DNA from: a virus
IMG/VR virus record: IMGVR_UViG_3300017917_001914
Location: 1 to 64,000 of that record
Length of the DNA: 64,000 bases
Direction: 5' to 3' (one strand)
Below are positions 3,601 through 19,170 of this stretch, piece after piece. How positions within the stretch are numbered: the first letter of the stretch is position 1; every line of letters starts with the position of its first letter. Made by a program: the position numbers and the translations under genes. The notes below the pieces were generated by a model, which was not told the DNA's origin, did not search any database, and was given only the letters and a program-made list of their open reading frames with translations.

Positions 3601-6600
3601 CGGTACATCAGGAACTAGCGGTACATCAGGAACAACAGGAACTTCTGGCACTAGTGGTTTAAGTGGTATCTCAGCGGGACTAACTTATTATTTCAATGAA
3701 AGTCAAAATTCTGATGTTTCAGGTTATAAAGTATTATCAACAATTCCTTCAAGTGCCACAACACAAACAGTTACAACGAATTTAACAGGAAGCCAACAAA
3801 ATGTATTGGTTTCCGATTATATAACACCTCAACTAGGTTTTGCAACAATACCTGCCGGTGTACAAAGATTTCATTTGCATTTCTTAAAACAAGCGAGTAA
3901 TGACGATATCGACGCTTATGTTGAAATACAATTAGCGGATTCAACAGGAACACCTATTGGGTCAACAATTACATCTAATGTTGCGTTAATTGGTTGGGTT
4001 AGTGCCGTAATACCGGTTGAACTTGTTGTTGATATTGTATTACCAACAACAACTATTGACCCAACAAATAGAATGATTGTTAGATTATATCTTAACAATA
4101 ATGATGCTGTTGCACATTCAGTGGTTTATTACACTGAAGGTAATTCGTATTATTCATTTGTTACAACATCAGTTGGTTCGGTCGCTGGAAGTGCGGGTAC
4201 AAGTGGTAGTTCAGGTACAAGTGGTTCAGACGGTACTTCGGGAACTAGTGGAACAGATGGTACTTCAGGCACAAGCGGAACAGATGGTACTTCAGGAACT
4301 TCAGGTACAACGGGTACATCAGGAACGAGTGGTTCAGACGGAACATCAGGAACTAGTGGTACATCAGGTACATCAGGAACTAGCGGAACAGATGGGACAT
4401 CAGGGACTAGTGGAACAGATGGAACATCAGGTACAACAGGTACTTCAGGAACTAGTGGTACAAGTGGTACAGATGGGACATCTGGTACGAGCGGAACTAC
4501 AGGTACTTCAGGTACTTCAGGTACAAGTGGTTCAGACGGAACATCAGGAACTAGCGGTACATCAGGTACATCAGGCTCAAGTGCAACATCAGGAACTTCA
4601 GGTTCAAGTGCGACATCAGGAACTTCAGGTACAAGTGCAACGTCAGGAACATCGGGTACAAGTGCAACGTCAGGAACATCTGGTACGAGCGGAACTACAG
4701 GTACTTCAGGTACTTCAGGTTCGAGTGCGACATCAGGTACTTCAGGTTCGAGTGCGACATCAGGAACTTCAGGTACAAGTGCAACTTCAGGAACATCGGG
4801 TTCTTCAGGTGTTAATGGAACATCAGGAACAAGTGGAACATCAGGTACATCAGGTACATCAGGAACATCAGGTTCGAGTGGTATTTCTCCAACAGGTTTA
4901 GTTGCCTCTAATTATGTTGCTAAAGGTTACAAAAACGGAAGTGCTCAAACTATTCCAAACAACACGGATACAGTTGTAACATTTATAGATGATTTTGACC
5001 CTCAAGGTTGGATTACATCTAATAAATTTCAACCAACAATTGAAGGGTATTACCATATTCAAGTTGCAGTATGGTGGGATGCAGGTTCTGTTACTAATAA
5101 CCAAAATAATATTCAAGTTAGAAAAAATGGTAGTACTCAAGTTGCTATTCAACAAGCTCAAATTTTAACAGGTTCTGGATATGGTCAAGAAATTGATATT
5201 ATAATATATTTTAATGGTACTACAGATTACATTGAAGTAACAGCATTTACTGGTAACCCAACATCTCAAAATATAAATGGTGCTAGTTCAGGTACTTGGA
5301 TTACCGGAGCATTGATTGTGGGTGGTGGTTCATCAGGTACATCGGGAACATCAGGAAGTAGTGGTACAACAGGTACAAGTGGAACTTCAGGTTCATCAGG
5401 AGCCAATGGTTCTTCAGGTACAAGCGGAACAACAGGTACTTCAGGAACTTCAGGTTCAAGTGCTACTTCAGGAACTTCAGGTACAACAGGTACTTCGGGA
5501 ACAAGTGGTTCGTCAGGTGTTAACGGAACTTCAGGTACATCAGGAACTACGGGTACAAGTGGAACTTCAGGTTCTTCTGCAACAAGTGGAACTTCAGGTT
5601 CATCAGGAGCTAATGGTTCTTCAGGAACTAGTGGAACAACCGGTACATCAGGTACAAGCGGTTCGTCAGGTGCTAATGGTTCTTCAGGAACTAGCGGAAC
5701 AACCGGTACAAGTGGAACATCAGGTTCAAGTGCGACTTCGGGGACATCAGGTTCTTCAGGAGCGAATGGTAGTTCAGGAACTAGCGGTACAACCGGTACA
5801 AGTGGAACATCGGGTTCAAGTGCAACATCAGGAACGTCAGGTTCATCAGGAGCCAATGGTAGTTCAGGAACTAGTGGAACAACGGGTACTTCGGGAACGA
5901 GCGGGTCAAGTGGAACATCCGGTTCATCAGGAGCCAATGGTTCTTCAGGAACAACAGGTACTTCGGGTACAAGTGGTTCAAGTGCAACTTCGGGAACATC
6001 AGGTTCTTCAGGAGCGAATGGTTCTTCGGGAACTAGCGGAACAACAGGAACAAGTGGTACGTCAGGTTCTTCAGGTACAAGTGGTTCTTCGGGAGCAAAT
6101 GGTTCTTCAGGAACTTCAGGTTCATCAGGAGCAAATGGTTCAAGTGGTACTTCAGGTTCTTCAGGAGCAAATGGTAGTTCAGGAACTAGCGGGACAACCG
6201 GTACTTCAGGAACATCAGGAGCGAATGGTAGTTCAGGTACTAGCGGAACAACAGGTACTTCAGGTACTAGAGGTACAAGTGGGACTTCAGGTTCATCGGG
6301 GGCAAATGGTAGTTCAGGAACATCAGGTTCGTCGGGAGCGAATGGTTCAAGTGGTACTTCAGGAACTAGAGGAACTAGTGGTACATCAGGTTCATCAGGT
6401 GCTAATGGTAGTTCAGGAACAAGTGGAACATCAGGTACTTCAGGTTCGTCAGGTGTTAATGGTAGTTCAGGAACATCAGGTACTTCAGGAGCTAATGGTA
6501 GTTCAGGAACATCAGGTACTTCAGGAACAAGTGGAACTACAGGAACATCCGGAACAAGTGGTTTATCAGGTGTTAACGGAACTAGTGGTACTTCAGGTGC

Positions 6601-8680
6601 TAATGGTGCAAATGGTAGTTCAGGTACAAGCGGAACATCAGGTTCATCAGGTACAAGTCCGGGTGGTTCTCCAGCAGTTATTATCTTAGGTGGTGGTACA
6701 TTATCATCAGTTAGATGTGGTGTAAGTAATGCTTCAACAGGAAACTGTTCCGCATCTTTAGGTGGTACTCTAAATAGTAGTGTTGGTAATTTTAGTGTTG
6801 TTGTTGGTGGTTGTTCTAATACTGCCAACGCCGGTTATTCGGTTGTTGTTGGTGGTAGACAAAATACTTCTTGTTGTTTTGGATTTATTGGTGGTGGATG
6901 TTTAAACGTACTTGTGAGTTCACCAAATTACTCATCAATTGTTGGAGGATGTAAAAATACTATTAATGCTGCTTGTTCTGTTATTGTTGGTGGTGTAGTA
7001 AATACTGTGGCTATATCTCATTCATTTATAGGTGGAGGGCAAGACCATCAAATTACAACTCAAGCACATTCAACAATTGGTGGAGGTCGAAAAAATTGTA
7101 TAACAAGTTGTGCTGGATTTATTGGAGGTGGTTTTTGTAATACAATTTCTAACAAATACTCAACAATTGGTGGTGGTATTTCTAATACATTATCAGGTTA
7201 TCAAGCGTCTATTTTAGGTGGTGCTGGTAACACATCTTCAGGTCAACAATCGGTTATTGGAGGTGGATGTTCTAATATAGTATCAGGTACTCGTTCAGTT
7301 ATTGGTGGTGGTTCTTCAAATTGTGTGACTGATACAGCATCCTCAATATTAGGTGGCGAATCTAACTGTGTTACAGGTAAAAATGGGAATGCTATTATTG
7401 GTGGATGTAAGAATTCTATTAATCAAAGTTCAGGTAATTCTAATATTGGCGGAGGTGTTTCTAATACGATAGCCGCTTCTTATAGTAGTTTAATTGGTGG
7501 TGGTTATAAAAATTATATAGCGGCAAGTCTTTGTTCTCTTATTGTTGGTGGTCGAAATCATTATATCAAAGCAAATTGTTCATTTATTGGTGGTGGTTGT
7601 GGAAACAATGTAACTGGTAACTTATCAACAATTGTTGGTGGTAGGAAAAATTTTATAAATACGACTAATTCTGTAATTGTCGGAGGTGCAGTAAATTGTG
7701 TATGTTACACTTATTCATTCATTGGTGGTGGTTATCAAAATATTGTTAATTCCTCTTGTAGTACTATTGGTGGTGGATATAGAGCATGTATTATTGGAGG
7801 TGGTTATTCAAAATTTGGAACAATTGGTGGTGGTGGGGCTAACTATATAGCAAATAGTTATTCGTCTATTATTGGTGGTGGGATTCTTAATTGTATTTGG
7901 TTAACTAGTGGTAGTAATCCGGGTAATACAGCGTGTAATAATTCAATATTAGGTGGTAAAGGTAATCATATTAAAGAAACAAATGGTTATTCTTATGTAC
8001 GTTTAAGACATAATACTATTACAGGTGGTGAAGCAAATTGTATTCGAAATATTGCGGCTAGTACCGATGTTGATGGTAATTTTATTGGTGGTGGTACTAA
8101 TAATCTTATAGAAGCAACAAGATGTTCAGTTATTGTTGGTGGTTATAAAAATATTATTAACGGAAAGAACGCTTATAACTTTAATAGTATTTTAGGTGGT
8201 AGTTATAATATAATATCAGGTAATTACTATAACTCACATATTATTGGTAGTAATCGTACTGCAAATGCTAGTAACACAACTTTCGTTAACTATTTAGATA
8301 AACAAGGTGGAACATTTAGTATTGACCACCCAAATCCGAGTTTAAGTTGTACTTTAAGATTAAATCACTCATTTGTTGAATCCCCAACTGCCGGTGATAA
8401 CTTATATAGATATATTGTTGTTACTTCAGGAGGAACAGCAACAATTGAATTACCGGATTATTTCCAATATCTGAATAAAGATGTTCAAATATGGGTAACA
8501 CCAACTGATAGTTTTGCGATTGGTTATGGTAAAATAAATGAAAGTTATACTGAAGTTACAATTTATGGTAATCAAGATGTTGAATTTAATGTTTTAATTG
8601 TTGGTACAAGAAAAGATAAAAACACTAAATTTTGGAAAGGTGTTGAAACACCTCAACCGAATAAATGTAATGATGTTTAA
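659..8680 (+). CDS. Giant collagen-like (Gly-Thr-Ser/Asp)n fibre protein with C1q-like domains, GG-repeat head and C-terminal fibre domain
   Basis: Long G-X-Y blocks; CBM5/12-like WKGVWSASINYIEGDVVYYNGSSY; two C1q/TNF-like domains (SGIYEIGYS...WLKVNG...LQLNQGDYIEI and EGYYHIQVAV...VRKNG...YFNGTTDYIEV); about 15-aa IGGG-x-N repeats; C-terminal FSIDHP...HSFVESP motif typical of fibre tips. Confidence 0.85.
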   Translation: MANIPISQLPQAFSAYPESLLVIVNYDLVTTGQTNYIYYSALTAQFSAGTSGTSGTSGTSGTSGKSFTWKGVWSASINYIEGDVVYYNGSSYVATTTIPSGGSSPDTNFSWGLIAQAGTSGTDGTSGTSGDDGTSGTSGADGTSGTSGVNGTSGSSGTSGAGVANYYATYSSSQTQYATSANTEYIATYDTVEIENGISIIDGSKITVQYSGIYEIGYSPMVEKKLFNGDLDVNIWLKVNGNNVDRSNSVEGFINPDIKALPYVQTILQLNQGDYIEIAYSATKTGVQLTAVSGQTSPLIPAAPSIIVDIKNVGVAAVAYTSTSGTSGTRGTSGTSGSSGTSGSSGINGTSGTSGTSGSDGTSGTSGTSGTSGSDGTSGTSGTSGTSATSGTSGSSGINGTSGTSGTSGTSGTSGTTGTSGTSGTTGTSGTSGTSGSDGTSGTSGTSGTDGTSGTSGTDGTSGSSGTSGTDGTSGTSGTDGTSGTSGTDGTSGTSGTGGLNGTSGTSGSDGTSGTSGTDGTSGTSGTDGTSGTSGTDGTSGTSGTSGSDGTSGTSGTDGTSGTSGTDGTSGTSGTDGTSGTSGSDGTSGTDGTSGTSGTDGTSGTSGTDGTSGTSGTDGTSGTSGTSGSDGTSGTSGTSGTSGTDGTSGTSGTSGTSGTDGTSGTSGTDGTSGTSGTDGTSGTSGTDGTSGTSGTDGTSGTSGTDGTSGTSGTDGTSGTSGSDGTSGTSGTDGTSGTSGTDGTSGTSGTDGTSGTSGSDGTSGTSGTSGTSGTDGTSGTSGTTGTSGTSGTDGTSGTSGTSGTDGTSGTSGTDGTSGTSGTSGTDGTSGTDGTSGTSGTDGTSGTSGTDGTSGTSGTDGTSGTSGTSGTDGTSGTSGTDGTSGTSGTDGTSGTSGTDGTSGTSGTDGTSGTSGTNGTSGTSGTDGTSGTSGTDGTSGTSGTDGTSGTSGTSGSDGTSGSSGTSGTSGTSGSSGTDGTSGTSGTSGTSGTSGTTGTSGTSGLSGISAGLTYYFNESQNSDVSGYKVLSTIPSSATTQTVTTNLTGSQQNVLVSDYITPQLGFATIPAGVQRFHLHFLKQASNDDIDAYVEIQLADSTGTPIGSTITSNVALIGWVSAVIPVELVVDIVLPTTTIDPTNRMIVRLYLNNNDAVAHSVVYYTEGNSYYSFVTTSVGSVAGSAGTSGSSGTSGSDGTSGTSGTDGTSGTSGTDGTSGTSGTTGTSGTSGSDGTSGTSGTSGTSGTSGTDGTSGTSGTDGTSGTTGTSGTSGTSGTDGTSGTSGTTGTSGTSGTSGSDGTSGTSGTSGTSGSSATSGTSGSSATSGTSGTSATSGTSGTSATSGTSGTSGTTGTSGTSGSSATSGTSGSSATSGTSGTSATSGTSGSSGVNGTSGTSGTSGTSGTSGTSGSSGISPTGLVASNYVAKGYKNGSAQTIPNNTDTVVTFIDDFDPQGWITSNKFQPTIEGYYHIQVAVWWDAGSVTNNQNNIQVRKNGSTQVAIQQAQILTGSGYGQEIDIIIYFNGTTDYIEVTAFTGNPTSQNINGASSGTWITGALIVGGGSSGTSGTSGSSGTTGTSGTSGSSGANGSSGTSGTTGTSGTSGSSATSGTSGTTGTSGTSGSSGVNGTSGTSGTTGTSGTSGSSATSGTSGSSGANGSSGTSGTTGTSGTSGSSGANGSSGTSGTTGTSGTSGSSATSGTSGSSGANGSSGTSGTTGTSGTSGSSATSGTSGSSGANGSSGTSGTTGTSGTSGSSGTSGSSGANGSSGTTGTSGTSGSSATSGTSGSSGANGSSGTSGTTGTSGTSGSSGTSGSSGANGSSGTSGSSGANGSSGTSGSSGANGSSGTSGTTGTSGTSGANGSSGTSGTTGTSGTRGTSGTSGSSGANGSSGTSGSSGANGSSGTSGTRGTSGTSGSSGANGSSGTSGTSGTSGSSGVNGSSGTSGTSGANGSSGTSGTSGTSGTTGTSGTSGLSGVNGTSGTSGANGANGSSGTSGTSGSSGTSPGGSPAVIILGGGTLSSVRCGVSNASTGNCSASLGGTLNSSVGNFSVVVGGCSNTANAGYSVVVGGRQNTSCCFGFIGGGCLNVLVSSPNYSSIVGGCKNTINAACSVIVGGVVNTVAISHSFIGGGQDHQITTQAHSTIGGGRKNCITSCAGFIGGGFCNTISNKYSTIGGGISNTLSGYQASILGGAGNTSSGQQSVIGGGCSNIVSGTRSVIGGGSSNCVTDTASSILGGESNCVTGKNGNAIIGGCKNSINQSSGNSNIGGGVSNTIAASYSSLIGGGYKNYIAASLCSLIVGGRNHYIKANCSFIGGGCGNNVTGNLSTIVGGRKNFINTTNSVIVGGAVNCVCYTYSFIGGGYQNIVNSSCSTIGGGYRACIIGGGYSKFGTIGGGGANYIANSYSSIIGGGILNCIWLTSGSNPGNTACNNSILGGKGNHIKETNGYSYVRLRHNTITGGEANCIRNIAASTDVDGNFIGGGTNNLIEATRCSVIVGGYKNIINGKNAYNFNSILGGSYNIISGNYYNSHIIGSNRTANASNTTFVNYLDKQGGTFSIDHPNPSLSCTLRLNHSFVESPTAGDNLYRYIVVTSGGTATIELPDYFQYLNKDVQIWVTPTDSFAIGYGKINESYTEVTIYGNQDVEFNVLIVGTRKDKNTKFWKGVETPQPNKCNDV
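1625..3670 (+). repeat. Degenerate 9-bp-unit repeat encoding (GTS/GTD)n, longest block
   Basis: About 680 codons of TSGTSGTDG with variable third codon positions. Confidence 0.95.
4190..4885 (+). repeat. (GTS/GTD/ATS)n repeat block
   Basis: Direct translation. Confidence 0.9.
5325..6660 (+). repeat. (GTS/GSS/GAN)n repeat block
   Basis: Direct translation; SSGANGSSGTSG units. Confidence 0.9.
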
Positions 8681-8761: not shown

Positions 8762-9796
8762 ATGAAATTATGTGTTATAACTAATTACCAAAATAAAGGG
8801 TATATTAATGAAATTATTGCTTTTGATAAAATTTTAAATTCTTTGAGTATACCTCATAACGATGTTTATAATTTTAACTTACCTAATATAACTTACCAAA
8901 TAAATAAAACCTACACACACGCTTTAATATTTTTAGATTACAAAATTAGTAGTATTGAACTTTACAAACAATTTTTTAAAGAACTACAAATACCAAAAAT
9001 TTTTATAATAGATTCAATACCTCATCATAATAAAGAACTTAATGATGAGTTTATTAAGATAAACGTTAATGGGATGGTAAATAACTTTTGTGGATTACCA
9101 ATTAACTATCAGTTATTAATTTACGACAATTATGCCGATGGGTTTATATTTTTTAATGATAATGATGTAAATTTATTTCAAAGTTATTATCAATTAACCA
9201 AACCCAAACCCGCTTTAGTAATATCCCCACCTTTAGGTGATATTAAGGATATTAAAATAAATTTTGATAATATGACACCCAATAAAAATATTGGGTTTAA
9301 TGGGTATCCTTCATATCAATCCGGAATGTTTAATTTATTAAATCTAATTAAATTTAACCCAAAATATAATTTAAATTTATATGGTGCACATGGAAGAGAT
9401 GAGGTTTTAAATGAAATGATAGCTAACCATTTAACCTCAACAAGTAATAGGATTAGATTTAAAGGTAGATTGAAAAACGATGAAAAATTCTTTAAAGAAA
9501 ACTACATATATTCTAACTTATCAATATATGATACTTTTGATTATTATACTTTTTTTAGTTTATTAAATGGGTCAGTTCCAATTATTAGTAATACTTCGGG
9601 AACATCTTTATTTTTTAAATCGTATCCATTCATTGTTAATAATACGGTGGACTCAATGTCTAATGTGTTAGAAGTGATTAATACAACTTCTGTTAATGAC
9701 ATGAAAGAAATTTTAAATAATGCTCTTGAGGGTATTAAACATTTAAACAATGACAATGTTAGTCAACAATATATAAAATTTATAAATTCATTGTGA
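8762..9796 (+). CDS. GT4/GT-B fold glycosyltransferase-like protein (divergent)
   Basis: C-terminal half follows the GT4 pattern: IGFNG...KYNLNLYG...RIRFKG...SIYDTFDYYTFFSLLNGSVPIISNTSG. Confidence 0.55.
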   Translation: MKLCVITNYQNKGYINEIIAFDKILNSLSIPHNDVYNFNLPNITYQINKTYTHALIFLDYKISSIELYKQFFKELQIPKIFIIDSIPHHNKELNDEFIKINVNGMVNNFCGLPINYQLLIYDNYADGFIFFNDNDVNLFQSYYQLTKPKPALVISPPLGDIKDIKINFDNMTPNKNIGFNGYPSYQSGMFNLLNLIKFNPKYNLNLYGAHGRDEVLNEMIANHLTSTSNRIRFKGRLKNDEKFFKENYIYSNLSIYDTFDYYTFFSLLNGSVPIISNTSGTSLFFKSYPFIVNNTVDSMSNVLEVINTTSVNDMKEILNNALEGIKHLNNDNVSQQYIKFINSL

Positions 9797-11127
9797 TGAA
9801 TAAACAATCAACATTAGGATTTGATAAGATATACGTAATAAATTTAAAACGTAGACCTGATAGAAAAGAGAACTTAATTAAAACCCTTCCGGGTCTTGAT
9901 TTAACATTTATTGAAGCGGTCGACGGTAATGAATTATCCGTTGAACAGTTAATAAAAGAAAAAAAACTTAACAAGTCATTTTTTGACCCTTGGGGTAAAG
10001 TGACTATGGGAATTTTTGCTTGTGCATTATCCCACAAAAAAGCGTGGGAACAAGCTTTAACAGATGGTGTTGAGACGGCATTGTTTTTAGAGGATGATGT
10101 GTATTTGACAATTCCTGTTTTAGAAAATGGTAATTTTACCCCTGAATATCAATCTATATTTGATGATATTCAAGAATACGATTGGGACTTGGTTCATTTA
10201 GGTAAAAAGACATCAGGACAAAGTGGTATTGATGTTAGTAAACATTTGGTGATTCCAAAATATAATACAAATTATAATGGTGCTCATTCGTATATTGCAA
10301 CAAGAGATATGATAAAAACAATGTCGGAAGAATATTGTCCAATTAGATATGCTGCAGACATTTATTTAGAACAATTTTACAATACTCATAATACTTTCAC
10401 ATTAAGTAAAAATTTGTTTAAACAGATTAGTGATAACTTTAGTGCGGAAAACGCTGACTCTGACACATATTACAATGAATATAGAGAAGGTGGTGGACGT
10501 GTTGGTCTTTCATTTGATGAAAATGGTAATGTTTTAAATAAGAAAATTGTGAACTACCTAAAACAACCTAAAGATATTATTGATAGATATGTTGAGTTAG
10601 TTTTAGATAAACCAAACTTTGGTATACAAAAATTTAACAAACCAAACTTTTTTGGAATAACAAAATTATTAACTTTTCTTTCTACTGAATTAGGTGATAA
10701 TGAAACGATGGTAGAGATTTATTCCCATTTTGGTGAACTAACTTTTTTCTTTGGTAGTTGTGGATTATTTAACAATATCTACGCAATTGACCCTTTATGT
10801 GGTGAAGATAGATTTAATATTGAAACCGAGACTACTTGGGACGATGTTAGAGTTGGATTCCACAGCAATACATATCATTTTAGAAACATATCTCATATTG
10901 AGAAAACTCCGGATGAGGTCTCTGAAGATTTTAGTAATGTCTCGTTTTTATTTATTAATAATCGAAACAATGGTGATGTAACATCATTAATTTCTCAATA
11001 TTATGATAAGATTAAAGATGACGGATATATTGGGGGTGATTGTTATGAAAAAATCAACATACCTAACGCTAAAGTATTTGATAACGGATATTGGGTCATT
11101 AAAAAAAATGAACTCTATTTAAATTAA
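9793..11127 (+). CDS. GT25-family glycosyltransferase fused to a class I methyltransferase-like domain
   Basis: IYVINLKRRPDRK, FIEAVDG, ACALSHKKAW, LFLEDD, GAHSYI are GT25 motifs; C-terminal MVEIYSHFGE...IYAIDP...KIKDDGYIGGDCY resembles Methyltransf_24. Confidence 0.8.
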   Translation: MMNKQSTLGFDKIYVINLKRRPDRKENLIKTLPGLDLTFIEAVDGNELSVEQLIKEKKLNKSFFDPWGKVTMGIFACALSHKKAWEQALTDGVETALFLEDDVYLTIPVLENGNFTPEYQSIFDDIQEYDWDLVHLGKKTSGQSGIDVSKHLVIPKYNTNYNGAHSYIATRDMIKTMSEEYCPIRYAADIYLEQFYNTHNTFTLSKNLFKQISDNFSAENADSDTYYNEYREGGGRVGLSFDENGNVLNKKIVNYLKQPKDIIDRYVELVLDKPNFGIQKFNKPNFFGITKLLTFLSTELGDNETMVEIYSHFGELTFFFGSCGLFNNIYAIDPLCGEDRFNIETETTWDDVRVGFHSNTYHFRNISHIEKTPDEVSEDFSNVSFLFINNRNNGDVTSLISQYYDKIKDDGYIGGDCYEKINIPNAKVFDNGYWVIKKNELYLN

Positions 11128-11153
11128 AAAACCCTCATACGAGGGTTTTTTTT
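11126..11153. terminator. Bidirectional terminator between convergent genes
   Basis: aaaaaaccctc-atac-gagggtttttt. Confidence 0.8.
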
Positions 11154-12027
11154 ATTGTTGGTCTATTGCGTCTACTATTTTCTGAATATCAAAAACTTCG
11201 TATAAGTCATTATAAGGTATTGAACTGATGTCTTGGAATAAAAGATATTTAGAATAATGTGGATGATTTAAATCAGGTGTTTTTGTTGGTTCATTTGCCA
11301 TAATATTATTATGAATATCAAATCCAAATACTTTAGGATTAGTCCCAACCCAAGTAACAACTGATGGTAAATTTAAAGCTGTGGCGATGTGCATTACACT
11401 ACTATCAATCAATAATCTTTTTGTTGACATACTTAACAACACCGCAATACTTCTGAAAGAATCTAACGCTTGGAATGTGTTTTCATAAGTAATTTGGTCT
11501 TCTCTCTTAACGTGTAAGATTGCATAATCTTTAGCATAATGATTAATAATATCTTGCATTATTGGTTGAGGAATATCTCTTGTCCAACTATACTTTAAAG
11601 GTTGATTAAATGCCCCACCATGTGGTTGAATAACCATAATTGGTTTGTCTAATTTGTAAAACGATTCAAAGTATTGTTTTTCAGCTTTAGTAATAAACAA
11701 CTCCGGTTTTTCTCCATCATAATTTAAACCATACATTTCACACCATAATTGAATAAGATGTTTTTCTTCGGTAATATAACTTGAGGTTGTGTATGGGTCA
11801 GACACAAATACTTTAGCTTCTTTACCCATAATGTATTTTTCATATATTCCACTCATTGTTTCATGAGTTAATACTTTATTAACATTTGGATTACCAATAA
11901 AGACATCCGGATAACTACTAACAACAATTATGTTAGCTTTACTATATTGTTTTTTTATAGATTTTAATACTGCGGTTGCCATGATATTCTTACCAAGTCC
12001 CCCATCGATTTGAAATATTACATTCAT
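11152..12027 (-). CDS. GT9 (heptosyltransferase-like) glycosyltransferase
   Basis: GGLGKNIMATAVLKSIK, VIQPHGG, IDSSVMHIATALNLPSVVTW match GT9 motifs. Confidence 0.7.
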   Translation of the reverse strand: MNVIFQIDGGLGKNIMATAVLKSIKKQYSKANIIVVSSYPDVFIGNPNVNKVLTHETMSGIYEKYIMGKEAKVFVSDPYTTSSYITEEKHLIQLWCEMYGLNYDGEKPELFITKAEKQYFESFYKLDKPIMVIQPHGGAFNQPLKYSWTRDIPQPIMQDIINHYAKDYAILHVKREDQITYENTFQALDSFRSIAVLLSMSTKRLLIDSSVMHIATALNLPSVVTWVGTNPKVFGFDIHNNIMANEPTKTPDLNHPHYSKYLLFQDISSIPYNDLYEVFDIQKIVDAIDQQ

Positions 12028-12028
12028 A

Positions 12029-12247
12029 TTATTCTTTATTTTCTTTTAATCCAAATTTTATCCATTTATACCACACTCTTTCATGTAGGAAATATATTAA
12101 TGGTTTTATACATAATTCTGTCAATCCAATACTACCTGAAACCCAAAAATTACCTGTAAATAGGTAAGAGATTAAACAGGTTTGTAATGTCCCTAACATT
12201 CTATAACTTATGGCTTTACCTACGTGTCTTTTTACTTCTACTTTCAT
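12029..12247 (-). CDS. DUF2061-like small membrane protein
   Basis: RHVGKAISYRMLGT...ELCIKPLIYFLHERVW pattern. Confidence 0.75.
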   Translation of the reverse strand: MKVEVKRHVGKAISYRMLGTLQTCLISYLFTGNFWVSGSIGLTELCIKPLIYFLHERVWYKWIKFGLKENKE

Positions 12248-12480
12248 TATCTAACAATTACTACATCACCTTTCCAAATTACCTCATTTGCTGTACAGCT
12301 AAGGTGGTGTTTATCCACATCTGTGTTTCTTGATGGGTCATATACAATATCTCTTGTTGTATGTGGTGGTATTTCAAAAATTACATTTGATGCAACGTTT
12401 TCAACACCATCAATTAATATTCTCCAAAACAAGTGATTATCATCACAAAGTGTATTATATCTTAATTTAACATCAATCAT
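12247..12480 (-). CDS. Hypothetical protein (77 aa)
   Basis: Tightly coupled ORF within the minus-strand operon. Confidence 0.65.
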   Translation of the reverse strand: MIDVKLRYNTLCDDNHLFWRILIDGVENVASNVIFEIPPHTTRDIVYDPSRNTDVDKHHLSCTANEVIWKGDVVIVR

Positions 12481-12887
12481 AACTTACCTTCTTTTTTCAT
12501 TTGTTCTCTAATCTTTGTTGCTGATATATCGTGAATTTCTTGTGGTGGAATATGTTCGATAATATCATATCCAACACCTCTACCAAACTCAATTGAACAA
12601 ATATCAGGAATAACCATCACTTTAACTCTTTCTTCTTCTGAATAAAAGTTTGAGATGTTCTCTCTAACTTGTTCTGCGGTAAACGGATTTTTCTCGTCCG
12701 GTTGTATATCTCTTATACAGATTAAAACATTCTTACCCTCATCCATTGCTCTTTTAAACAATTCTTGGTGTCCCAAATGTAATGGTTGCCATCTACCAAC
12801 AAACATCGCAAATTGACCATCCTTTGATGGTAATGATGAACCTACGTGTATTTTTTTACTCCAATTTTCCATTTTGTTTATATTCAT
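12477..12887 (-). CDS. HxGH nucleotidyltransferase (cytidylyltransferase-like; candidate minimal ATP sulfurylase). True start may be the downstream Met (MENWSK)
   Basis: FVGRWQPLHLGH and ISATKIR motifs; adjacent to APS kinase. Confidence 0.75.
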   Translation of the reverse strand: MNINKMENWSKKIHVGSSLPSKDGQFAMFVGRWQPLHLGHQELFKRAMDEGKNVLICIRDIQPDEKNPFTAEQVRENISNFYSEEERVKVMVIPDICSIEFGRGVGYDIIEHIPPQEIHDISATKIREQMKKEGKL

Positions 12888-13314
12888 AAATTTTTTGAGT
12901 TATTTTTCCTATTGAAATTTGTTCTATAACATTTGTTGTATCCACATCCACAAAGTTTTCTGTTGGTGGTTCATAGTTAGATACGTGATAATCTTCTCTA
13001 CCTCTAATATCTTGGGTGTGAACATAAAACTCTAAAACATTATGTTTGTTTTTAAATTCATCACGTTGGTCTTTATAAGGTGATACTAATGAAACTATCA
13101 CATCAAAACCTTTAGAATCTAAAAATAATGAGATATCTTGAGCTTTCTCAATATTTTTTCTTCTTCCGGCTTCAGAGTAATCTTTGTTTTGAAAGACATC
13201 TCTAATATCGTCCCCATCTACAAGTATTGTATTACTTGGGTGTAGATAATCTTTAAGTTGTTTTGCTAATGTGGTCTTACCTGCTCCGGGTTGACCTGTA
13301 AACCAATATATCAT
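12856..13314 (-). CDS. cysC: Adenylyl-sulfate (APS) kinase
   Basis: WFTGQPGAGKTT, VDGDDIR, YSEAGRRKNI, VSLVSPY, YEPP. Confidence 0.9.
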   Translation of the reverse strand: MIYWFTGQPGAGKTTLAKQLKDYLHPSNTILVDGDDIRDVFQNKDYSEAGRRKNIEKAQDISLFLDSKGFDVIVSLVSPYKDQRDEFKNKHNVLEFYVHTQDIRGREDYHVSNYEPPTENFVDVDTTNVIEQISIGKITQKIYEYKQNGKLE

Positions 13315-13326
13315 AATTAAAATTTT

Positions 13327-14148
13327 TTATACATATCCAAAATAATCATAAAACCATTTATAATGATTTTTAATGTTCATTGAAATTTCATAACCTAACA
13401 CTTCCATATAATCATCCGGTTTTCTTTCAAATTTAGGTCTTAATTGATGGTCACCAAATATACCATGTATCCTATCATCTTCATGTGTTAATTGAGAAAT
13501 ATTCTCAAAGTCATGTCCTTCATAATATGGTAATTCTAAATAATTGTAAATTCTACTCATTTCTTCTTCCGGATTACTCATTAAATCTTCATAACGAATG
13601 AATAACATTTTTTCGGCAATACCTTGTTGTATAATGTCCTGTAATCGGTCAATTGCAACACCAACAGGAATACCACTCGCCCAAATATCAACACGTTTGT
13701 TTAAGGTTGTGCCAACTAATTGAGATGGGTTTTGAATCCCATTTTCTCTATGAGGATTTTTACGGAAATTTTTTTCCATAGAAGAATAGATGGCTCTAAT
13801 GTCTCTAACCATACAAATAATTTTTGGTTCAAAGTCTAACATTTCTAATAAACCATAATTAATACCCCACTCTCTACTTTTATCCATAACGATTGGTTTA
13901 TCTGTTAATCGTTTGAAATACCCTTGCATTCCGTCTTTACAGAAATCAACAAACGCTTTGGTCATTTCATCTTGGTCTTGGGCTTGAAAAGCTTGAGAAT
14001 GATTGTAGTTGTTTTTACATGCAATAACAAAATCAACTAAACCGGATGTTGGTGTAGAATAAATTTCAGGGTTTTGTGCTAACAAGTTTTGTATAAGTGT
14101 ACTACCACTTCTTGGTAGTGATGAGTTAAAAAATATTTTTTTCATCAA
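13327..14148 (-). CDS. PAPS-dependent sulfotransferase (Sulfotransfer_3-like)
   Basis: 5'-PSB motif SLPRSGSTL, DKSR, 3'-PB motif MVRDIRAIYSS, IRYEDLMSNP. Confidence 0.9.
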   Translation of the reverse strand: MMKKIFFNSSLPRSGSTLIQNLLAQNPEIYSTPTSGLVDFVIACKNNYNHSQAFQAQDQDEMTKAFVDFCKDGMQGYFKRLTDKPIVMDKSREWGINYGLLEMLDFEPKIICMVRDIRAIYSSMEKNFRKNPHRENGIQNPSQLVGTTLNKRVDIWASGIPVGVAIDRLQDIIQQGIAEKMLFIRYEDLMSNPEEEMSRIYNYLELPYYEGHDFENISQLTHEDDRIHGIFGDHQLRPKFERKPDDYMEVLGYEISMNIKNHYKWFYDYFGYV

Positions 14149-14149
14149 A

Positions 14150-14827
14150 TTAAATATTATATATGTGTATTATTACTTCTGTGTAATGTTCTATGAATTC
14201 ATCTGTCATTAAATTCCATTTAATGTTTACACCATCAATAGAGTATACCTCAACATTTATAAAATATTGTAAGTAAGTATTTCTAAAGTGTTTGAATTTT
14301 TCTTTTAAAATAGGGTCACCTAAATGCCATTCTCCGGCAATTTTTTTAACATTATTTTTAATGAATTCAAAATTTTCATCGTTAAAAATATCATATTCAC
14401 CACCTTCACAATCTGTTTTTAAAAAATTGATAGTTTCAAGATTGTATAGTTCACAAAGTTTTTTAAAGGTTATACCTTCCATTTGTTTTGCACCACCATA
14501 AATGTAATCACCATCAGTATATGTGTCGGTATTTGAAATACCTTTCAATATTGGTGTAACCGGATAACCGATTGTATTTTTAACTAATGTTGGAAATTCA
14601 TATTCACTTGGTTCAATACAATAAACGTGTTTTGGTTTTTTGGATAAAATACTATAAGTAAATGGCCCAACACTTGCACCAAAATCAACAACAATATCAC
14701 CTTCAGAAACTTCAAAGAATTTTTCATAAATTCTTTCAACAAATGTTTCTTGTGTAATTAGTTCTTTATGAAAGAGACCTTCTTCGGTCTGTCCCATCCA
14801 ACCCCAATCAAAATTATTGTAATCCAT
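14150..14827 (-). CDS. FkbM-family methyltransferase
   Basis: VVDFGASVGPF, YCIEP, FLKTDCEGGEY, GEWH. Confidence 0.85.
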   Translation of the reverse strand: MDYNNFDWGWMGQTEEGLFHKELITQETFVERIYEKFFEVSEGDIVVDFGASVGPFTYSILSKKPKHVYCIEPSEYEFPTLVKNTIGYPVTPILKGISNTDTYTDGDYIYGGAKQMEGITFKKLCELYNLETINFLKTDCEGGEYDIFNDENFEFIKNNVKKIAGEWHLGDPILKEKFKHFRNTYLQYFINVEVYSIDGVNIKWNLMTDEFIEHYTEVIIHIYNI

Positions 14828-17800
14828 TATAGTAAATGTTGAATTTGTTGTATTACCATTTCAGGTGTTATTGATTTATGACATTCAAATTGTTTTTCAG
14901 TTCCTTTATTAACAGGACACCAATTCCAATCACCCTTATCAAAGGTAAACTCAGGTTTATTCCAACATCCGTTACAAACTGAATGATTTACAATTCTAGT
15001 ACAATTAAACATAAACTCATGCTCCTCATTTGTAAAGTTAGAAATCATAACAACTTGTTTACCTAATCCCCAAGCTAACCAAGATAAACCGCTGGATAAT
15101 CCGATAAAAAATTCACTATGGTGAATAACATTCATTGTATGATGAATTGATGTATTTTTAATCTTGTTTGCATTTTCAAACGGATTATCTTCTTTGGATA
15201 CGTTTATTACTTTATATCCTAAACCATGAAGATAGTTGATTAATACTTGCCAACCTTCTCTTGTCCAAAATTTACAACCTGCCGTTGAATTAGTTGCTAT
15301 GGTAACATATTTCTTTTGATAAGGTCTTGGGTGAATAGTGTTATGTATATTAGGTTTAATCTCTTTAAATTCTAATCCTAATATGTTGGTAATTGTCTGT
15401 TGTAATGGGATTGTGTTTGGTAATACAGGTTCTTTATCGGTATTGTAAAACCATCCGATAGTATACATAGCATAAAGATTATGTACTGTTGTTCCCGGAA
15501 CAACAAATTCAATTTCAGAATATTCATTTTCAAATAAATGATTCCAAAAAGTGGATACAATAACTTTACAATTATGTTTCTTTTTAAATTCTAAAACATA
15601 TGGAATCCAAGCAATTGAATCCCCTAAAGATTTACTATCGAAAGATATGTAAACTCTTTTATTTGTTAAGTCCATCGTGTTATCATAGATTACCTCATTA
15701 TCTCGAGTAACAACTGCTCTCCATTTGGTGTAATAACTTCTATTTAATTTAACCCAATGATTTGGTTTTATGGTATTTTCATAATGACAAACACCTTTTT
15801 CATCAAAGAATTTTACATTATAATCTTTGTCTCCCGTTCCTTTTATTTCTAAGAATGGTTCTTTAACAAAATGTTGAAATATTTGTACTTCATTATCTAT
15901 CATCGTTTGTTTTTTAATTGGTTCGTTTAATATTTTTTGGTATAACTCGTAATTTTTTTCTGCAAACTCTTTTATGGTATATTTTGGAAATTCATAATAA
16001 ATTTCATCTTTAATTAAATCCAAAAGTTGGTTTTTCATATCAAAAATATCTCCGGATATTTGTTTAATGTAAGGTGTGAACATATCCATATATTGAGGTA
16101 AGTTTCTTGCTAAAATTTTTAGTCCATAAGAAATTCCTTCTCTTAATACCAGTGGATTACATTCCCAAGTTGAGTTAAACATTAGAACATCAGCAGCACA
16201 CATAAATTCACTAACATTATCCTTTTCACCCCATACTCTAACATTGCTTGGTAAATCATTCATAATTGGCTCCCAATATTCTTGGAAGTTAGGTGCTTGA
16301 TTTCCTATGAAATGAAATTCTAATTCTGGGTAAATACCCTCAACCAATCTTGCAATTTCAACACCTTCACCTTGATTTTTACCTGATGTCCACAATCCAA
16401 CATTTATGATGTGAATTTTGTTTGGGTCTAAACCTAACTTTTCTTTATTGGTTTCTTTAGATATTACTATTGTTGGGTTATATGGAAATTCAATTACTTC
16501 ACCATATGATGGCATGTTCATAAAGGTCACTTCTTTATGGAAAGGAGAACAAAACGCATATGCTTCAGGATGGAATATTTTTTCACTATCCGGTTGAAAT
16601 ATTACATTATGACAAGTTTCAACAACTCTCCATGTTCGGTCATTTTTATAAATAAAATTCATTAAGTCATTTGATAGTTTGTTGTGAGCGTCAAACGCCT
16701 CAATCATTTCATCTAAGTGAATTACATCAAAATAATTCTCTTCAATAATTTTCTTTAACTCATTTTTATCTTGACCTAATGTCCAATAATGTGTTGGTGG
16801 TATTAGTTCTTTGATTTTATTTCTTTGTACCACATAATGGTCACTATGGTTTGAATATTCAACAACAAATAGTTCTACCTTCTCACTATATAAACCTAAT
16901 AATGATTCGATTCGTTTTAATAAGAATGATGGCATTCCTCCGGTTGATAGGTGTGGTGCCAAAAATAAAACTCTAATTTTTTCTTTATGATGATTTTTTA
17001 TTTTAGATATTATTTTACCCATTTCTAAAATGTTTTTTTCACCGTGAATAAATAATAAGTCATCTTTTTTATTTGGTATTTTAACCCATAAACTTTCTTC
17101 ATTAATATTATAGTTTGAATAGATTTTATCTATCAATTCTAAATTTCCATTAGCATAAATGTAAGGTAATCCATCAAATATTAATTTTTTCCATAATAAA
17201 ACATTTAAGATAGTTTCTTCATTATATGCCGCATAATATGGAATATCATTTAATACTTCAGGGTGAATACACATTTGATACCACTCATAAAGAAAATCAG
17301 TACATTTTTCATTGGCAACATAATAACCTGTCTGTCTATATTTTTGTCTAACATATTGATTAACATTAAATAATTCACACGCCGGATGTTCTAATGTTGT
17401 CGACATATCTTCTCTAGTCATTGCACCACCTCTTTCACCTATGTGTAGAAAATCATAAATTCCCTCAACAAAATATGGATAATCTTTTGTGTTATCATAT
17501 AAGTCAAAAATTTTATCAACATATGGTGTTGCAATGGAATCACAATCAACAAATGCAACCATTTTAGAGTATTTAGACAATACATCTTTAGTGATTAAAG
17601 GTTTTTGTACTAAAATATTATATATGGTTTTGTTAGTTCTATTAATGTAAAAATTATCACCCTCTTGAATATATCGTTCCGTGTTATCGTCGACTAAATT
17701 TAAATTCCACATTATGGTTGCAACATCTTTAATTCCAACCATTTTGTTTGAGTTAATAAGGTATAAAAATATTGGTAAGTCACTATATTCTCGGATTGAT

Positions 17801-19170
17801 TTAATACACATTTTAGCAACATCAAAATAATTTTCTGTGGCATATAGAACATAAGCTTTCTCTACCTTGTCTTTAATGATTAAAGGTTCTCTTTTTGGGT
17901 ACGAAGTATTAATAAGATTATGGTGGTGTATTTGAGTTGACATATATTGTAACCCAATTTCGTTTTCTAATAATAATTCTCTAACCGGTGAATTAAATTG
18001 GTTTGTTTTGTATTTTGATAATAATTCAATAATACCTTTGCTATAAGCAATTGGGCCGGTAACCCTCAATACGGTTTCTTTATCTGACCCCCCAATATAA
18101 TTTTTAATATTTTCTTTAACAATTTCAATTACTCGATGTAAAAATGGATGTTTTGGTCGACATATTATATGCCAATTTTGAAACTCACCAAACTGATATT
18201 TTAATTCATCCGCCCAATCCAAACCTTCCCAATGTGTTAACAGATACTCATCGGTCGGTAATAATGTTTCTTCCAATGGAATTGTGGTACAACTTTTAAT
18301 ATCTAAATAAACACCACCAACCTTATACATTAAAAGGTATCTAAAAAAATCAGATTTTGCTGACCCATAATTTGGATTAATACTTAAATAAAGATTTAAA
18401 GTTTCTTCATCATAATTTTCTTTAATAAAATTAAGACAATCTTCATCATTATAAAACCTGTATTCAAAAGTAGGGTTCATATCTTTTAACCTTTGAACCA
18501 CCTCACTTATTTCAGTTGGTAAATCATTAGTTTTATATGTTTGATGTATTACTCTAGGTATTAGAGGTTTCATTAATGTAATATCACTAATGTGTTTAAT
18601 AATTTGATATTCAGGTAATTCCGATATTAATTTATCAATTTCAACTTTGTTTGAAACACCATCGTGATATTCTAATGTTATTTTGTTTGGGATTGGAAAT
18701 GAATGTTCTTTACAATAGTTTAAAAAATCTCTAAAGATGATGTGGTCATGACCTTCAGTGTCAATTTTTAAATAATCTACCGACCCAACATTATAGGTGT
18801 CAATTAATGTTTTCCAACTAATTGTTGGTACGTTTTCTATGGTAACCAAACTATTGTATAATTCTTCACCTAATTCTTTAATTGCAAAAGGGTGGGGATT
18901 ATTGATTGAGTTACTTCCTCTAACCCACCAAGGTAAATTATTTTCCTCTATTTTCCAATCATCAATGTAGTAGACATCTACTTCACCATCTGTAGTAGAT
19001 AACGCCGCTTGGACTTTAATTACATTCTGTTTATTGGGTAATCTATTTATGTAATATTTTATTGGTTCAATACTAATACCGATTGTATCGTCATTTGCGG
19101 TTTCAATTAATGTATCAAAATCTGAAGTACCTATTTCAATAAAATCGTAATGTTTGAGGTTTAACGACAT
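14827..19170 (-). CDS. Multidomain enzyme: FkbM methyltransferase + GT32-like + GT-A + GT4 + TibC/Aah-like protein heptosyltransferase
   Basis: FIEIGTSDF...YLKIDTEGHD; IPRVIHQT...KSDFFRYLLMYKVGGVYLDIK...TGP; FVDCD...YNEETILN; HLSTGGMP...NVGLWTSGKNQ...ECNPLVLRE; SKSLGDSIAW...FIGLSSGLSWLAW...CNGCW...WCP...FECHKSIT. Confidence 0.85.
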   Translation of the reverse strand: MSLNLKHYDFIEIGTSDFDTLIETANDDTIGISIEPIKYYINRLPNKQNVIKVQAALSTTDGEVDVYYIDDWKIEENNLPWWVRGSNSINNPHPFAIKELGEELYNSLVTIENVPTISWKTLIDTYNVGSVDYLKIDTEGHDHIIFRDFLNYCKEHSFPIPNKITLEYHDGVSNKVEIDKLISELPEYQIIKHISDITLMKPLIPRVIHQTYKTNDLPTEISEVVQRLKDMNPTFEYRFYNDEDCLNFIKENYDEETLNLYLSINPNYGSAKSDFFRYLLMYKVGGVYLDIKSCTTIPLEETLLPTDEYLLTHWEGLDWADELKYQFGEFQNWHIICRPKHPFLHRVIEIVKENIKNYIGGSDKETVLRVTGPIAYSKGIIELLSKYKTNQFNSPVRELLLENEIGLQYMSTQIHHHNLINTSYPKREPLIIKDKVEKAYVLYATENYFDVAKMCIKSIREYSDLPIFLYLINSNKMVGIKDVATIMWNLNLVDDNTERYIQEGDNFYINRTNKTIYNILVQKPLITKDVLSKYSKMVAFVDCDSIATPYVDKIFDLYDNTKDYPYFVEGIYDFLHIGERGGAMTREDMSTTLEHPACELFNVNQYVRQKYRQTGYYVANEKCTDFLYEWYQMCIHPEVLNDIPYYAAYNEETILNVLLWKKLIFDGLPYIYANGNLELIDKIYSNYNINEESLWVKIPNKKDDLLFIHGEKNILEMGKIISKIKNHHKEKIRVLFLAPHLSTGGMPSFLLKRIESLLGLYSEKVELFVVEYSNHSDHYVVQRNKIKELIPPTHYWTLGQDKNELKKIIEENYFDVIHLDEMIEAFDAHNKLSNDLMNFIYKNDRTWRVVETCHNVIFQPDSEKIFHPEAYAFCSPFHKEVTFMNMPSYGEVIEFPYNPTIVISKETNKEKLGLDPNKIHIINVGLWTSGKNQGEGVEIARLVEGIYPELEFHFIGNQAPNFQEYWEPIMNDLPSNVRVWGEKDNVSEFMCAADVLMFNSTWECNPLVLREGISYGLKILARNLPQYMDMFTPYIKQISGDIFDMKNQLLDLIKDEIYYEFPKYTIKEFAEKNYELYQKILNEPIKKQTMIDNEVQIFQHFVKEPFLEIKGTGDKDYNVKFFDEKGVCHYENTIKPNHWVKLNRSYYTKWRAVVTRDNEVIYDNTMDLTNKRVYISFDSKSLGDSIAWIPYVLEFKKKHNCKVIVSTFWNHLFENEYSEIEFVVPGTTVHNLYAMYTIGWFYNTDKEPVLPNTIPLQQTITNILGLEFKEIKPNIHNTIHPRPYQKKYVTIATNSTAGCKFWTREGWQVLINYLHGLGYKVINVSKEDNPFENANKIKNTSIHHTMNVIHHSEFFIGLSSGLSWLAWGLGKQVVMISNFTNEEHEFMFNCTRIVNHSVCNGCWNKPEFTFDKGDWNWCPVNKGTEKQFECHKSITPEMVIQQIQHLL

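Follow-up and report, generated by a model that had tools for sequence, protein, structure and literature searches.

From where does a phage that encodes an adenosine 5'-phosphosulfate (APS) kinase and a sulfotransferase obtain its APS? Sulfate assimilation, sulfation and APS-dependent sulfite oxidation all have ATP sulfurylase as their point of entry, and to our knowledge only two types of this enzyme are recognised, Sat and CysDN. The question is raised by a gene cassette at positions 12,029 to 14,148 of a 64,000-nucleotide stretch (the window, by which we mean the whole of the DNA analysed) of the IMG/VR virus record IMGVR_UViG_3300017917_001914. The record is 99 kb long, with a CheckV completeness of 34%; complete relatives measure 294–318 kb. 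An earlier note, made from the letters of the window, had described a tightly packed run of sulfotransferase, APS kinase, HxGH nucleotidyltransferase (NT), a 77-aa open reading frame (ORF) and a DUF2061 gene. All five lie on the minus strand as described, with gaps of −32 to +12 nt:

13327..14148, minus strand: sulfotransferase of the type using 3'-phosphoadenosine 5'-phosphosulfate (PAPS), 273 aa; Sulfotransfer_3 1.9e-18 (68.0 bits), Sulfotransfer_1 8.9e-14 (51.9 bits), phrog_27463 7.3e-45
12856..13314, minus strand: short-form APS kinase, 152 aa; APS_kinase (PF01583) 5.6e-17, 62.6 bits against a cut-off of 21.1
12477..12887, minus strand: NT136, HxGH nucleotidyltransferase, 136 aa (131 aa from Met6); CTP_transf_like (PF01467) 4.9e-8
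12247..12480, minus strand: orf77, 77 aa, no family; overlaps the NT136 stop by 4 nt
12029..12247, minus strand: DUF2061 small membrane protein, 72 aa; PF09834 7.5e-19, 68.4 bits against a cut-off of 23.1

Many database copies of NT begin at Met6, without the segment 12872–12887; with that start, the overlap of NT136 with the kinase gene is 17 nt, not 32.

We propose that the cassette is a self-contained module for PAPS synthesis and sulfation, and that NT136 is probably a third, minimal ATP sulfurylase, which would supply phage PAPS for glycan sulfation. The link with cysC for which the earlier note had suggested a search was found both as synteny and as fusion. Of 80 related viral loci (NT 51–98% identical), 78 have the APS kinase gene immediately before NT on the upstream side, and since so many share it, the arrangement is not due to chance. 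The same order is seen in 63 of 80 cellular loci, which were found with a 10-sequence alignment and come from Marinimicrobia, Bacteroidota, SAR11, Patescibacteria and archaea. Furthermore, 38 of the 49 NT homologues longer than 190 aa carry the Pfam APS_kinase domain (best 9.5e-69), with NT at either end, and PHROG 10255 and proteins of cultured Xylella and Stenotrophomonas phages are APS kinase-NT fusions. NT and APS kinase are almost obligate partners. The cultured carriers of the fusion are Xylella phage Bacata (L001, gp31) and Stenotrophomonas phage DLP_6 (L002, AAY80_227); in Bacata, an annotated cysteine dioxygenase lies about 3 kb from the fusion gene.

NT is carried by at least 585 species-level genomes, among them Marinimicrobia, Bacteroidota, Pelagibacteraceae, Nitrospirales, Patescibacteria, MGIII and Thaumarchaeota, and its neighbours there are sulfur genes. 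In Marinimicrobia, a Sulfotransfer_5 gene is followed by canonical CysC (4e-67) and NT; the order in Chitinophagaceae is a DUF2061-CysC fusion, NT and a sulfotransferase-like gene, and that in Nitrospiraceae is sulfite reductase, cysH and NT. In SAR11, NT is followed on the same strand by an aprM-like ORF, aprB and aprA, with gaps of 58, 70 and 2 nt (6 of 26 Pelagibacteraceae loci). It there holds the position of sat in the co-transcribed sat-aprMBA operon of Allochromatium vinosum (PMC3779200). APS is the sole metabolite common to these contexts, which fall into three independent groups: CysC with sulfotransferase-type genes, the apr genes, and sulfite reductase with cysH.

One of the Nitrospiraceae loci (L097, from a metagenome-assembled genome, MAG) encodes at 4701–8474 an 823-aa sulfite reductase with HEPN and TusA domains, then CysH, then a 168-aa NT; the same genome has a separate 588-aa Sat-CysC fusion elsewhere.

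Most carriers of NT are without any of the known sulfurylases. Among 43 NT-bearing genomes, 42 hold an APS kinase, 4 hold Sat and 1 holds a CysD-grade match; neither Sat nor a CysD-grade match is present in 38. The order of one NT-bearing Flavobacteriales-type MAG (Bacteroidota) was then sampled with 201 genomes, for which a completeness of at least 90% was requested, and NT was found in 9, CysD in 146 and CysC in 95. When the 95 CysC-bearing genomes were cross-tabulated by hand, 86 had CysD and 9 had NT, none having both and none having neither. The nine NT-bearing genomes show no Sat and no CysN above cut-off. NT thus fills the same slot beside CysC as CysD does, the two being mutually exclusive: CysC adjoins CysD in the one group (e.g. 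genomes G064 and G101) and NT in the other (e.g. G172), which is the pattern of in-place non-orthologous displacement. The exact probability of the split is 1/C(95,9), or about 8.5e-13, a figure that ignores phylogeny. CysD belongs to the PP-loop ATP pyrophosphatases and is coupled to the GTPase CysN, whereas NT has an unrelated fold and its carriers have no such GTPase partner. The complementarity between NT and the known sulfurylases recurs in other phyla. Context in all these forms, namely APS-kinase fusion or adjacency, the aprM-like/aprB/aprA and sulfite reductase/cysH neighbourhoods and the complementarity with CysD, supports the proposal of the earlier note that the small protein supplies APS.

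As for the virus itself, no Sat was found in the 99-kb record besides a sub-threshold match on NT136 (16.2 bits), and the record has neither a PAPS_reduct protein (CysD/CysH) nor a CysQ-type phosphatase. Sat and PAPS_reduct are likewise missing from three CheckV-100% relatives of 294–318 kb, all of which carry the NT-APS kinase pair. The earlier observation that the window lacks Sat and CysD therefore extends to the record and to complete genomes. With no PAPS reductase in any of the four, it is confirmed that the phage pathway is not assimilatory, and the route proposed in the earlier note, a PAPS supply of the phage's own for sulfation, is supported.

What kind of protein, then, is NT136? 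It belongs to the HIGH/cytidylyltransferase-like superfamily, scoring 33.7 bits on PF01467 against a cut-off of 21. An alignment of 46 diverse NT members shows GRWQPxHxGH, RD, YGRGVGY and ISATxIR as family invariants; H37 and H40 are nearly invariant, and S122, T124 and R127 invariant (NT numbering). Such conservation of HxGH and ISxTxxR suggests that NT is likely an active enzyme. Two of the invariants, the RD after strand 2 and the YGRGVGY loop, distinguish the family. The profile of the 46 members, run against PDB sequences, placed archaeal nicotinamide mononucleotide (NMN) adenylyltransferases (NMNATs) on top (MJ0541, 8.7e-15). The AlphaFold2 (AF2) model of NT136 is a single domain with a pLDDT of 90.4; its best Foldseek match is the NMNAT of M. 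thermautotrophicus (5.5e-4), and in VIA-align it matches phosphopantetheine adenylyltransferase (PPAT) and the MJ NMNAT at Z 9.7 and NadM and NadR at 8.2–8.8.

The nearest known proteins are thus the archaeal and NadM-type NMNATs (1F9A, MJ0541; 1EJ2/4YP7, M. thermautotrophicus; 2QJT/2QJO, NadM), which lead by profile and Foldseek and reach Z 9.7–8.5 in VIA-align. They share with NT a Rossmann-like HIGH fold and the motifs GRxQPxHxGH, NPxTA and ISxTxIR. However, NT measures 110–136 aa against 168–181 aa for the NMNATs and has RD and YGRGVGY of its own, and its genomic partners are sulfur genes rather than the NAD genes that would fit an NMNAT. The difference in length is concentrated in the stretch from strand 4 to GY (after the DIE strand), which has about 8 residues in NT as opposed to residues 77–109 in MJ0541, a shortening of about 25. 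This segment presumably carries nicotinamide-binding residues in NMNATs. To judge from the sequences, NT136 is best explained as a descendant of archaeal-type NMN adenylyltransferases in which the NMN-binding insert has been lost.

The likeness to Sat was given more weight in the earlier note than it can bear. The two motifs on which that argument was built, RWQPLHLGH and ISATKIR, are present in the translation, but such a resemblance is general within the HIGH superfamily: GRWQPLHLGH corresponds to GRxQPxHxGH, a motif of the NMNAT type, and ISATKIR to the SxTxxR of the superfamily. Membership of NT136 in the Sat family (PF01747) was rejected, as it scores 20.5 bits against a cut-off of 24.3, over residues 34–94 only, and no Sat stands among the 60 matches listed of 65 PDB sequences at E ≤ 1. 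In structure, NT136 aligns with Thermus Sat 1V47 at Z 7.5 (112 residues, rmsd 3.9) and with other Sat domains at Z 4.9–5.8 (2GKS 5.8, 1X6V 5.3, 1R6X 5.3). The catalytic fold that NT136 has in common with Sat is that of the whole HIGH superfamily. We take the features of Sat to be a PUA-like N-terminal domain, the sulfate-binding motifs QxRN and GRDHAG, and ISGTxxR. NT136, with one domain of 136 aa, has neither the PUA-like domain nor QxRN nor GRDHAG, and has GRWQPLHLGH and YGRGVGY instead. Sat (1V47, 1G8F/1J70, 4DNX) and NT would catalyse the same reaction; they share the superfamily, the motif order HxxH ... GRxxxG ... ISxTxxR and their operon partners (CysC, aprMBA, cysH). NT is, however, about one third the size of Sat, with no room for the PUA-like domain or QxRN.

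We turn to the other genes of the cassette. For the phage APS kinase, all 21 PDB sequence matches are APS kinases, and its AF2 model (pLDDT 92.7) can be superposed along its full length on APS kinases; all of the Foldseek matches listed except the last, gluconate kinase 1knq, are APS kinases (TMq 0.74–0.85). The P-loop GQPGxGKT and the motifs DGDxxR, S..GR..N and VSPY...R are invariant in 35 homologues. Compared with canonical CysC, the lid region is shortened, and the protein falls below the NCBIfam equivalog cut-off (64.5 vs 138.7 bits). In cells, short-form and canonical kinases are interchangeable as neighbours of NT, which argues for the same function. The sulfotransferase contains the loops PRSGST and VRDIRAIYSS (RDxRxxxxS), presumably of the 5'-phosphosulfate-binding and 3'-phosphate-binding types, respectively.

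DUF2061 adjoins NT in 47 of the 80 viral loci, and in a 263-aa protein of Chitinophagaceae (locus L127) it is fused to the N-terminus of canonical CysC. The two observations support a link of DUF2061 to sulfate handling, as the earlier note had surmised; a literature search on DUF2061 found nothing relevant. The phage protein has a single broad hydrophobic stretch (about residues 17–50), long enough for two membrane segments, and one may tentatively ask whether it is a membrane anchor. For orf77, no Pfam, NCBIfam or PHROG family was found, and its Atlas matches are viral hypotheticals at noise-level scores. The gene is sporadic, occurring in a minority of the related viral loci.

Taken together, we envisage the following pathway. 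NT136 would adenylylate sulfate (ATP + sulfate giving APS + pyrophosphate, PPi), and the short-form kinase, whose reading frame overlaps that of NT136, would convert APS to PAPS. The equilibrium of ATP sulfurylase lies far towards ATP; by removing APS, the kinase would draw this unfavourable reaction forward, in the manner of the fused PAPS synthases. With the PAPS so formed, the sulfotransferase would sulfate a glycan, itself the product of the glycosyl- and methyltransferases encoded nearby. This glycan may be carried by the collagen-like fibre protein next to the island or by a polymer of the host surface. DUF2061 may act as the small membrane partner of the module, and orf77 as an optional accessory.

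Such a design has precedents. In the bifunctional PAPS synthases (human PAPSS1/2, 1X6V; Aquifex Sat-CysC, 2GKS), kinase and adenylyltransferase reside on one polypeptide, and in the NT family the two are fused, in both orders, or encoded by overlapping genes. The sulfurylase half of a PAPS synthase is, however, a full Sat domain, whereas NT is an NMNAT-derived domain of about 110 aa. PPAT and dephospho-CoA kinase follow the same logic, in that a small HIGH adenylyltransferase acts first and a P-loop kinase then phosphorylates the adenylate at its 3'-OH. PPAT is also a top fold match of NT (Z 9.7), although that pair differs in substrate and context, and the kinase beside NT has the APS-kinase fold.

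Several other functions of NT136 have to be weighed against this. The kinship with NMNATs raises the possibility of a true NMN or nicotinate mononucleotide (NaMN) adenylyltransferase that serves NAD salvage, as do the NadM-type genes often carried by large phages; its proximity to the kinase would then be incidental. The best relatives of NT136 in sequence and fold, archaeal NMNAT and NadM, and its NMNAT-type GRxQPxHxGH agree with this. The NMNAT equivalog cut-offs are, however, far off (PRK01153, 37.6 vs 127 bits; TIGR01527, 31.6 vs 181.2 bits), the strand 4-GY segment is cut down as described, no NAD genes lie nearby, and the APS-kinase fusion and the complementarity with CysD have no NAD rationale. 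We rejected this function on the sub-cut-off scores, the missing insert and the genomic context, and hold it to be extremely improbable. The surrounding glycan genes, in turn, could suggest a nucleotidyltransferase for sugar phosphates or alcohol phosphates that resembles HldC or TagD, makes for instance ADP-heptose or CDP-glycerol, feeds the nearby GT9-type and other glycosyltransferases and is unrelated to sulfate. The cassette is flanked by GT9-like genes; NT is about the size of TagD, with a weak PHROG match to HldE (E 0.0031), and its fold matches include the Fom1 cytidylyltransferase domain (Z 7.1), a Thermoplasma lipopolysaccharide (LPS) core protein (6.7), TagD (6.3) and HldC (5.6). 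Yet NT accompanies the APS kinase with or without GT9, GT9-like genes being present in only about 20 of the 80 viral loci, and in cells it sits beside aprM-like/aprB/aprA, cysH and sulfite reductase, or CysC and sulfotransferases. It is complementary to CysD, and its partner has the APS-kinase fold and not the PfkB sugar-kinase fold. An ADP-heptose or CDP-alcohol role is thus quite improbable; we rejected it on the grounds that NT and kinase stay paired where GT9 is absent and that the pair occurs in cellular sulfur operons.

Two further possibilities stay closer to sulfate. NT136 might work on the APS/PAPS pool without being an ATP sulfurylase, either as an APS:phosphate adenylyltransferase (ADP-sulfurylase) or by adenylylating another anion, of the selenate, phosphite or phosphonate type, which the kinase would then 3'-phosphorylate. 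All contexts centre on APS or on a 3'-phosphorylating kinase and none identifies the anion; the altered lid of the short-form kinase could also be read in this way. We nevertheless judge this unlikely: HIGH-family enzymes consume a nucleoside triphosphate (NTP) and release PPi, many genomes with no other APS source pair NT with canonical full-length CysC (1e-67 to 1e-72), and the neighbours are PAPS-type sulfotransferases. Alternatively, NT136 might be a non-catalytic or regulatory partner of the APS kinase in a phage that uses host APS, in which case the cassette would add the kinase and transferase steps only. Phages are able to draw on host metabolites; however, HxGH and SxTxxR, the catalytic residues, vary little or not at all among the 46 members, and there are cellular genomes with NT and CysC that lack every known APS source, which makes a mute partner very improbable.

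Having favoured an ATP sulfurylase, we would note several points that weigh against it. NT is not a Sat-family protein by sequence, and its closest relatives make NAD. The complementarity is not absolute, as two SAR11 and two Nitrospiraceae genomes hold both NT and Sat, and many of the 43 NT-bearing genomes are incomplete single-amplified genomes (SAGs) or MAGs. The nine NT-bearing genomes of the sampled order may reflect only one or two replacement events, by which the P value given above would be inflated. In the cultured phages, the fusion gene lies among nucleotide-metabolism genes (MazG, COG3236 domain, DNA ligase), and no Sulfotransfer_3 was found in the Bacata and DLP_6 genomes, which leaves the product without an evident use in these phages. 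In one SAR11 isolate, NT stands alone, away from any APS kinase. Finally, the phage could instead draw its APS from the host.

The SAR11 isolate is Ca. Pelagibacter sp. HIMB1483 (locus L159), where within the stretch 6503–10936 NT stands among genes for a Rieske oxygenase, a GFA-family protein and an enoyl-CoA hydratase, and near YeeE-like sulfur-transport genes (Sulf_transp, DUF6691). Its genome has aprA elsewhere, with neither Sat nor APS kinase found.

The cassette belongs to a larger transcriptional unit. Eight consecutive minus-strand genes, from 19170 down to 11152, have intergenic gaps of −32 to +12 nt and form one operon; the three members outside the cassette, and two plus-strand genes of its surroundings, are:

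14827..19170, minus strand: operon gene 1, a 1447-aa multidomain glycan enzyme with FkbM methyltransferase, Gly_transf_sug (DXD), GT1 and GT9-like domains
14150..14827, minus strand: FkbM-type methyltransferase (Methyltransf_21 1.8e-7), directly upstream of the sulfotransferase with a gap of 1 nt
11152..12027, minus strand: GT9-like glycosyltransferase, last gene of the operon (Glyco_transf_9 22.3 bits, barely over cut-off); start 1 nt past the DUF2061 stop
9793..11127, plus strand: GT25 glycosyltransferase (context; Glyco_transf_25 2.4e-21)
659..8680, plus strand: collagen-like protein, 2673 aa (context; collagen triple-helix repeat 2.1e-174, 13 stretches)

Around the operon extends a glycan-synthesis island of some 17 kb, which includes GT25, GlcNAc transferase, DUF3431 and HtrL_YibB genes as well. 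The collagen-like protein, which accounts for a rise in GC content at 2–7 kb and has a weak CBM_5_12 match at its N-terminus, adjoins both the island and the GT25 gene. Animal collagen galactosyltransferases are GT25 members. The pairing of a collagen-like protein with a GT25 enzyme leads us to speculate that it may be a substrate of the island, which would make it a glycosylated and sulfated virion fibre. Elsewhere, the record encodes tail sheath, DNA polymerase, DnaB, UvsX-like and exonuclease genes, and the virus is therefore a jumbo myovirus.

Comparison of the window (11152–19170) with five related loci (L075–L079) showed flanking genes that are 87–94% identical, while NT is just 51–52% identical and orf77 is absent; it seems that the NT segment, with or without orf77, was exchanged by recombination inside an otherwise conserved operon. 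A blastn search of the cassette against cultured phages gave no match. The closest 'cellular' NTs (60–70% identity) are on three short contigs of Crocinitomicaceae/Flavobacteriales MAGs (L084, L085 and L086), one of which has an orf77-like neighbour; these contigs may be binned phage DNA, or a hint of a low-GC Bacteroidota host.

The novel part of this proposal is the enzyme family, the reaction and the logic of the pathway being already known. A literature search on novel or alternative ATP sulfurylases, and on phage cysC with sulfotransferase, did not find the NT family described as a sulfurylase. For the family as a whole, we lean towards the view that it represents a third class of ATP sulfurylase, of about 110 aa and NMNAT-derived, and an unrecognised enzyme of sulfate activation or of APS-to-ATP conversion in SAR11, Marinimicrobia, streamlined Flavobacteriales, Patescibacteria and marine archaea; in the jumbo phage, it would drive autonomous PAPS synthesis, by which a giant collagen-like fibre would be given a coat that is sulfated and proteoglycan-like. 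In a 2025 study of SAR11, sulfate pathways were still called incomplete, though aprAB is under strong purifying selection (PMC12636525).

If this is true, a third sulfurylase so small, and annotated as "cytidylyltransferase-like protein", would alter how sulfur pathways are scored in metagenomes. It would explain at least 585 species-level genomes with CysC or AprBA that lack any known APS source or sink, and the pathways of the lineages just named, now scored as incomplete, would gain their missing step. At about 15 kDa, NT136 would also offer a minimal PAPS-regeneration module for biotechnology. For the viruses, it would mean that large phages bring with them a complete PAPS supply for glycan sulfation.

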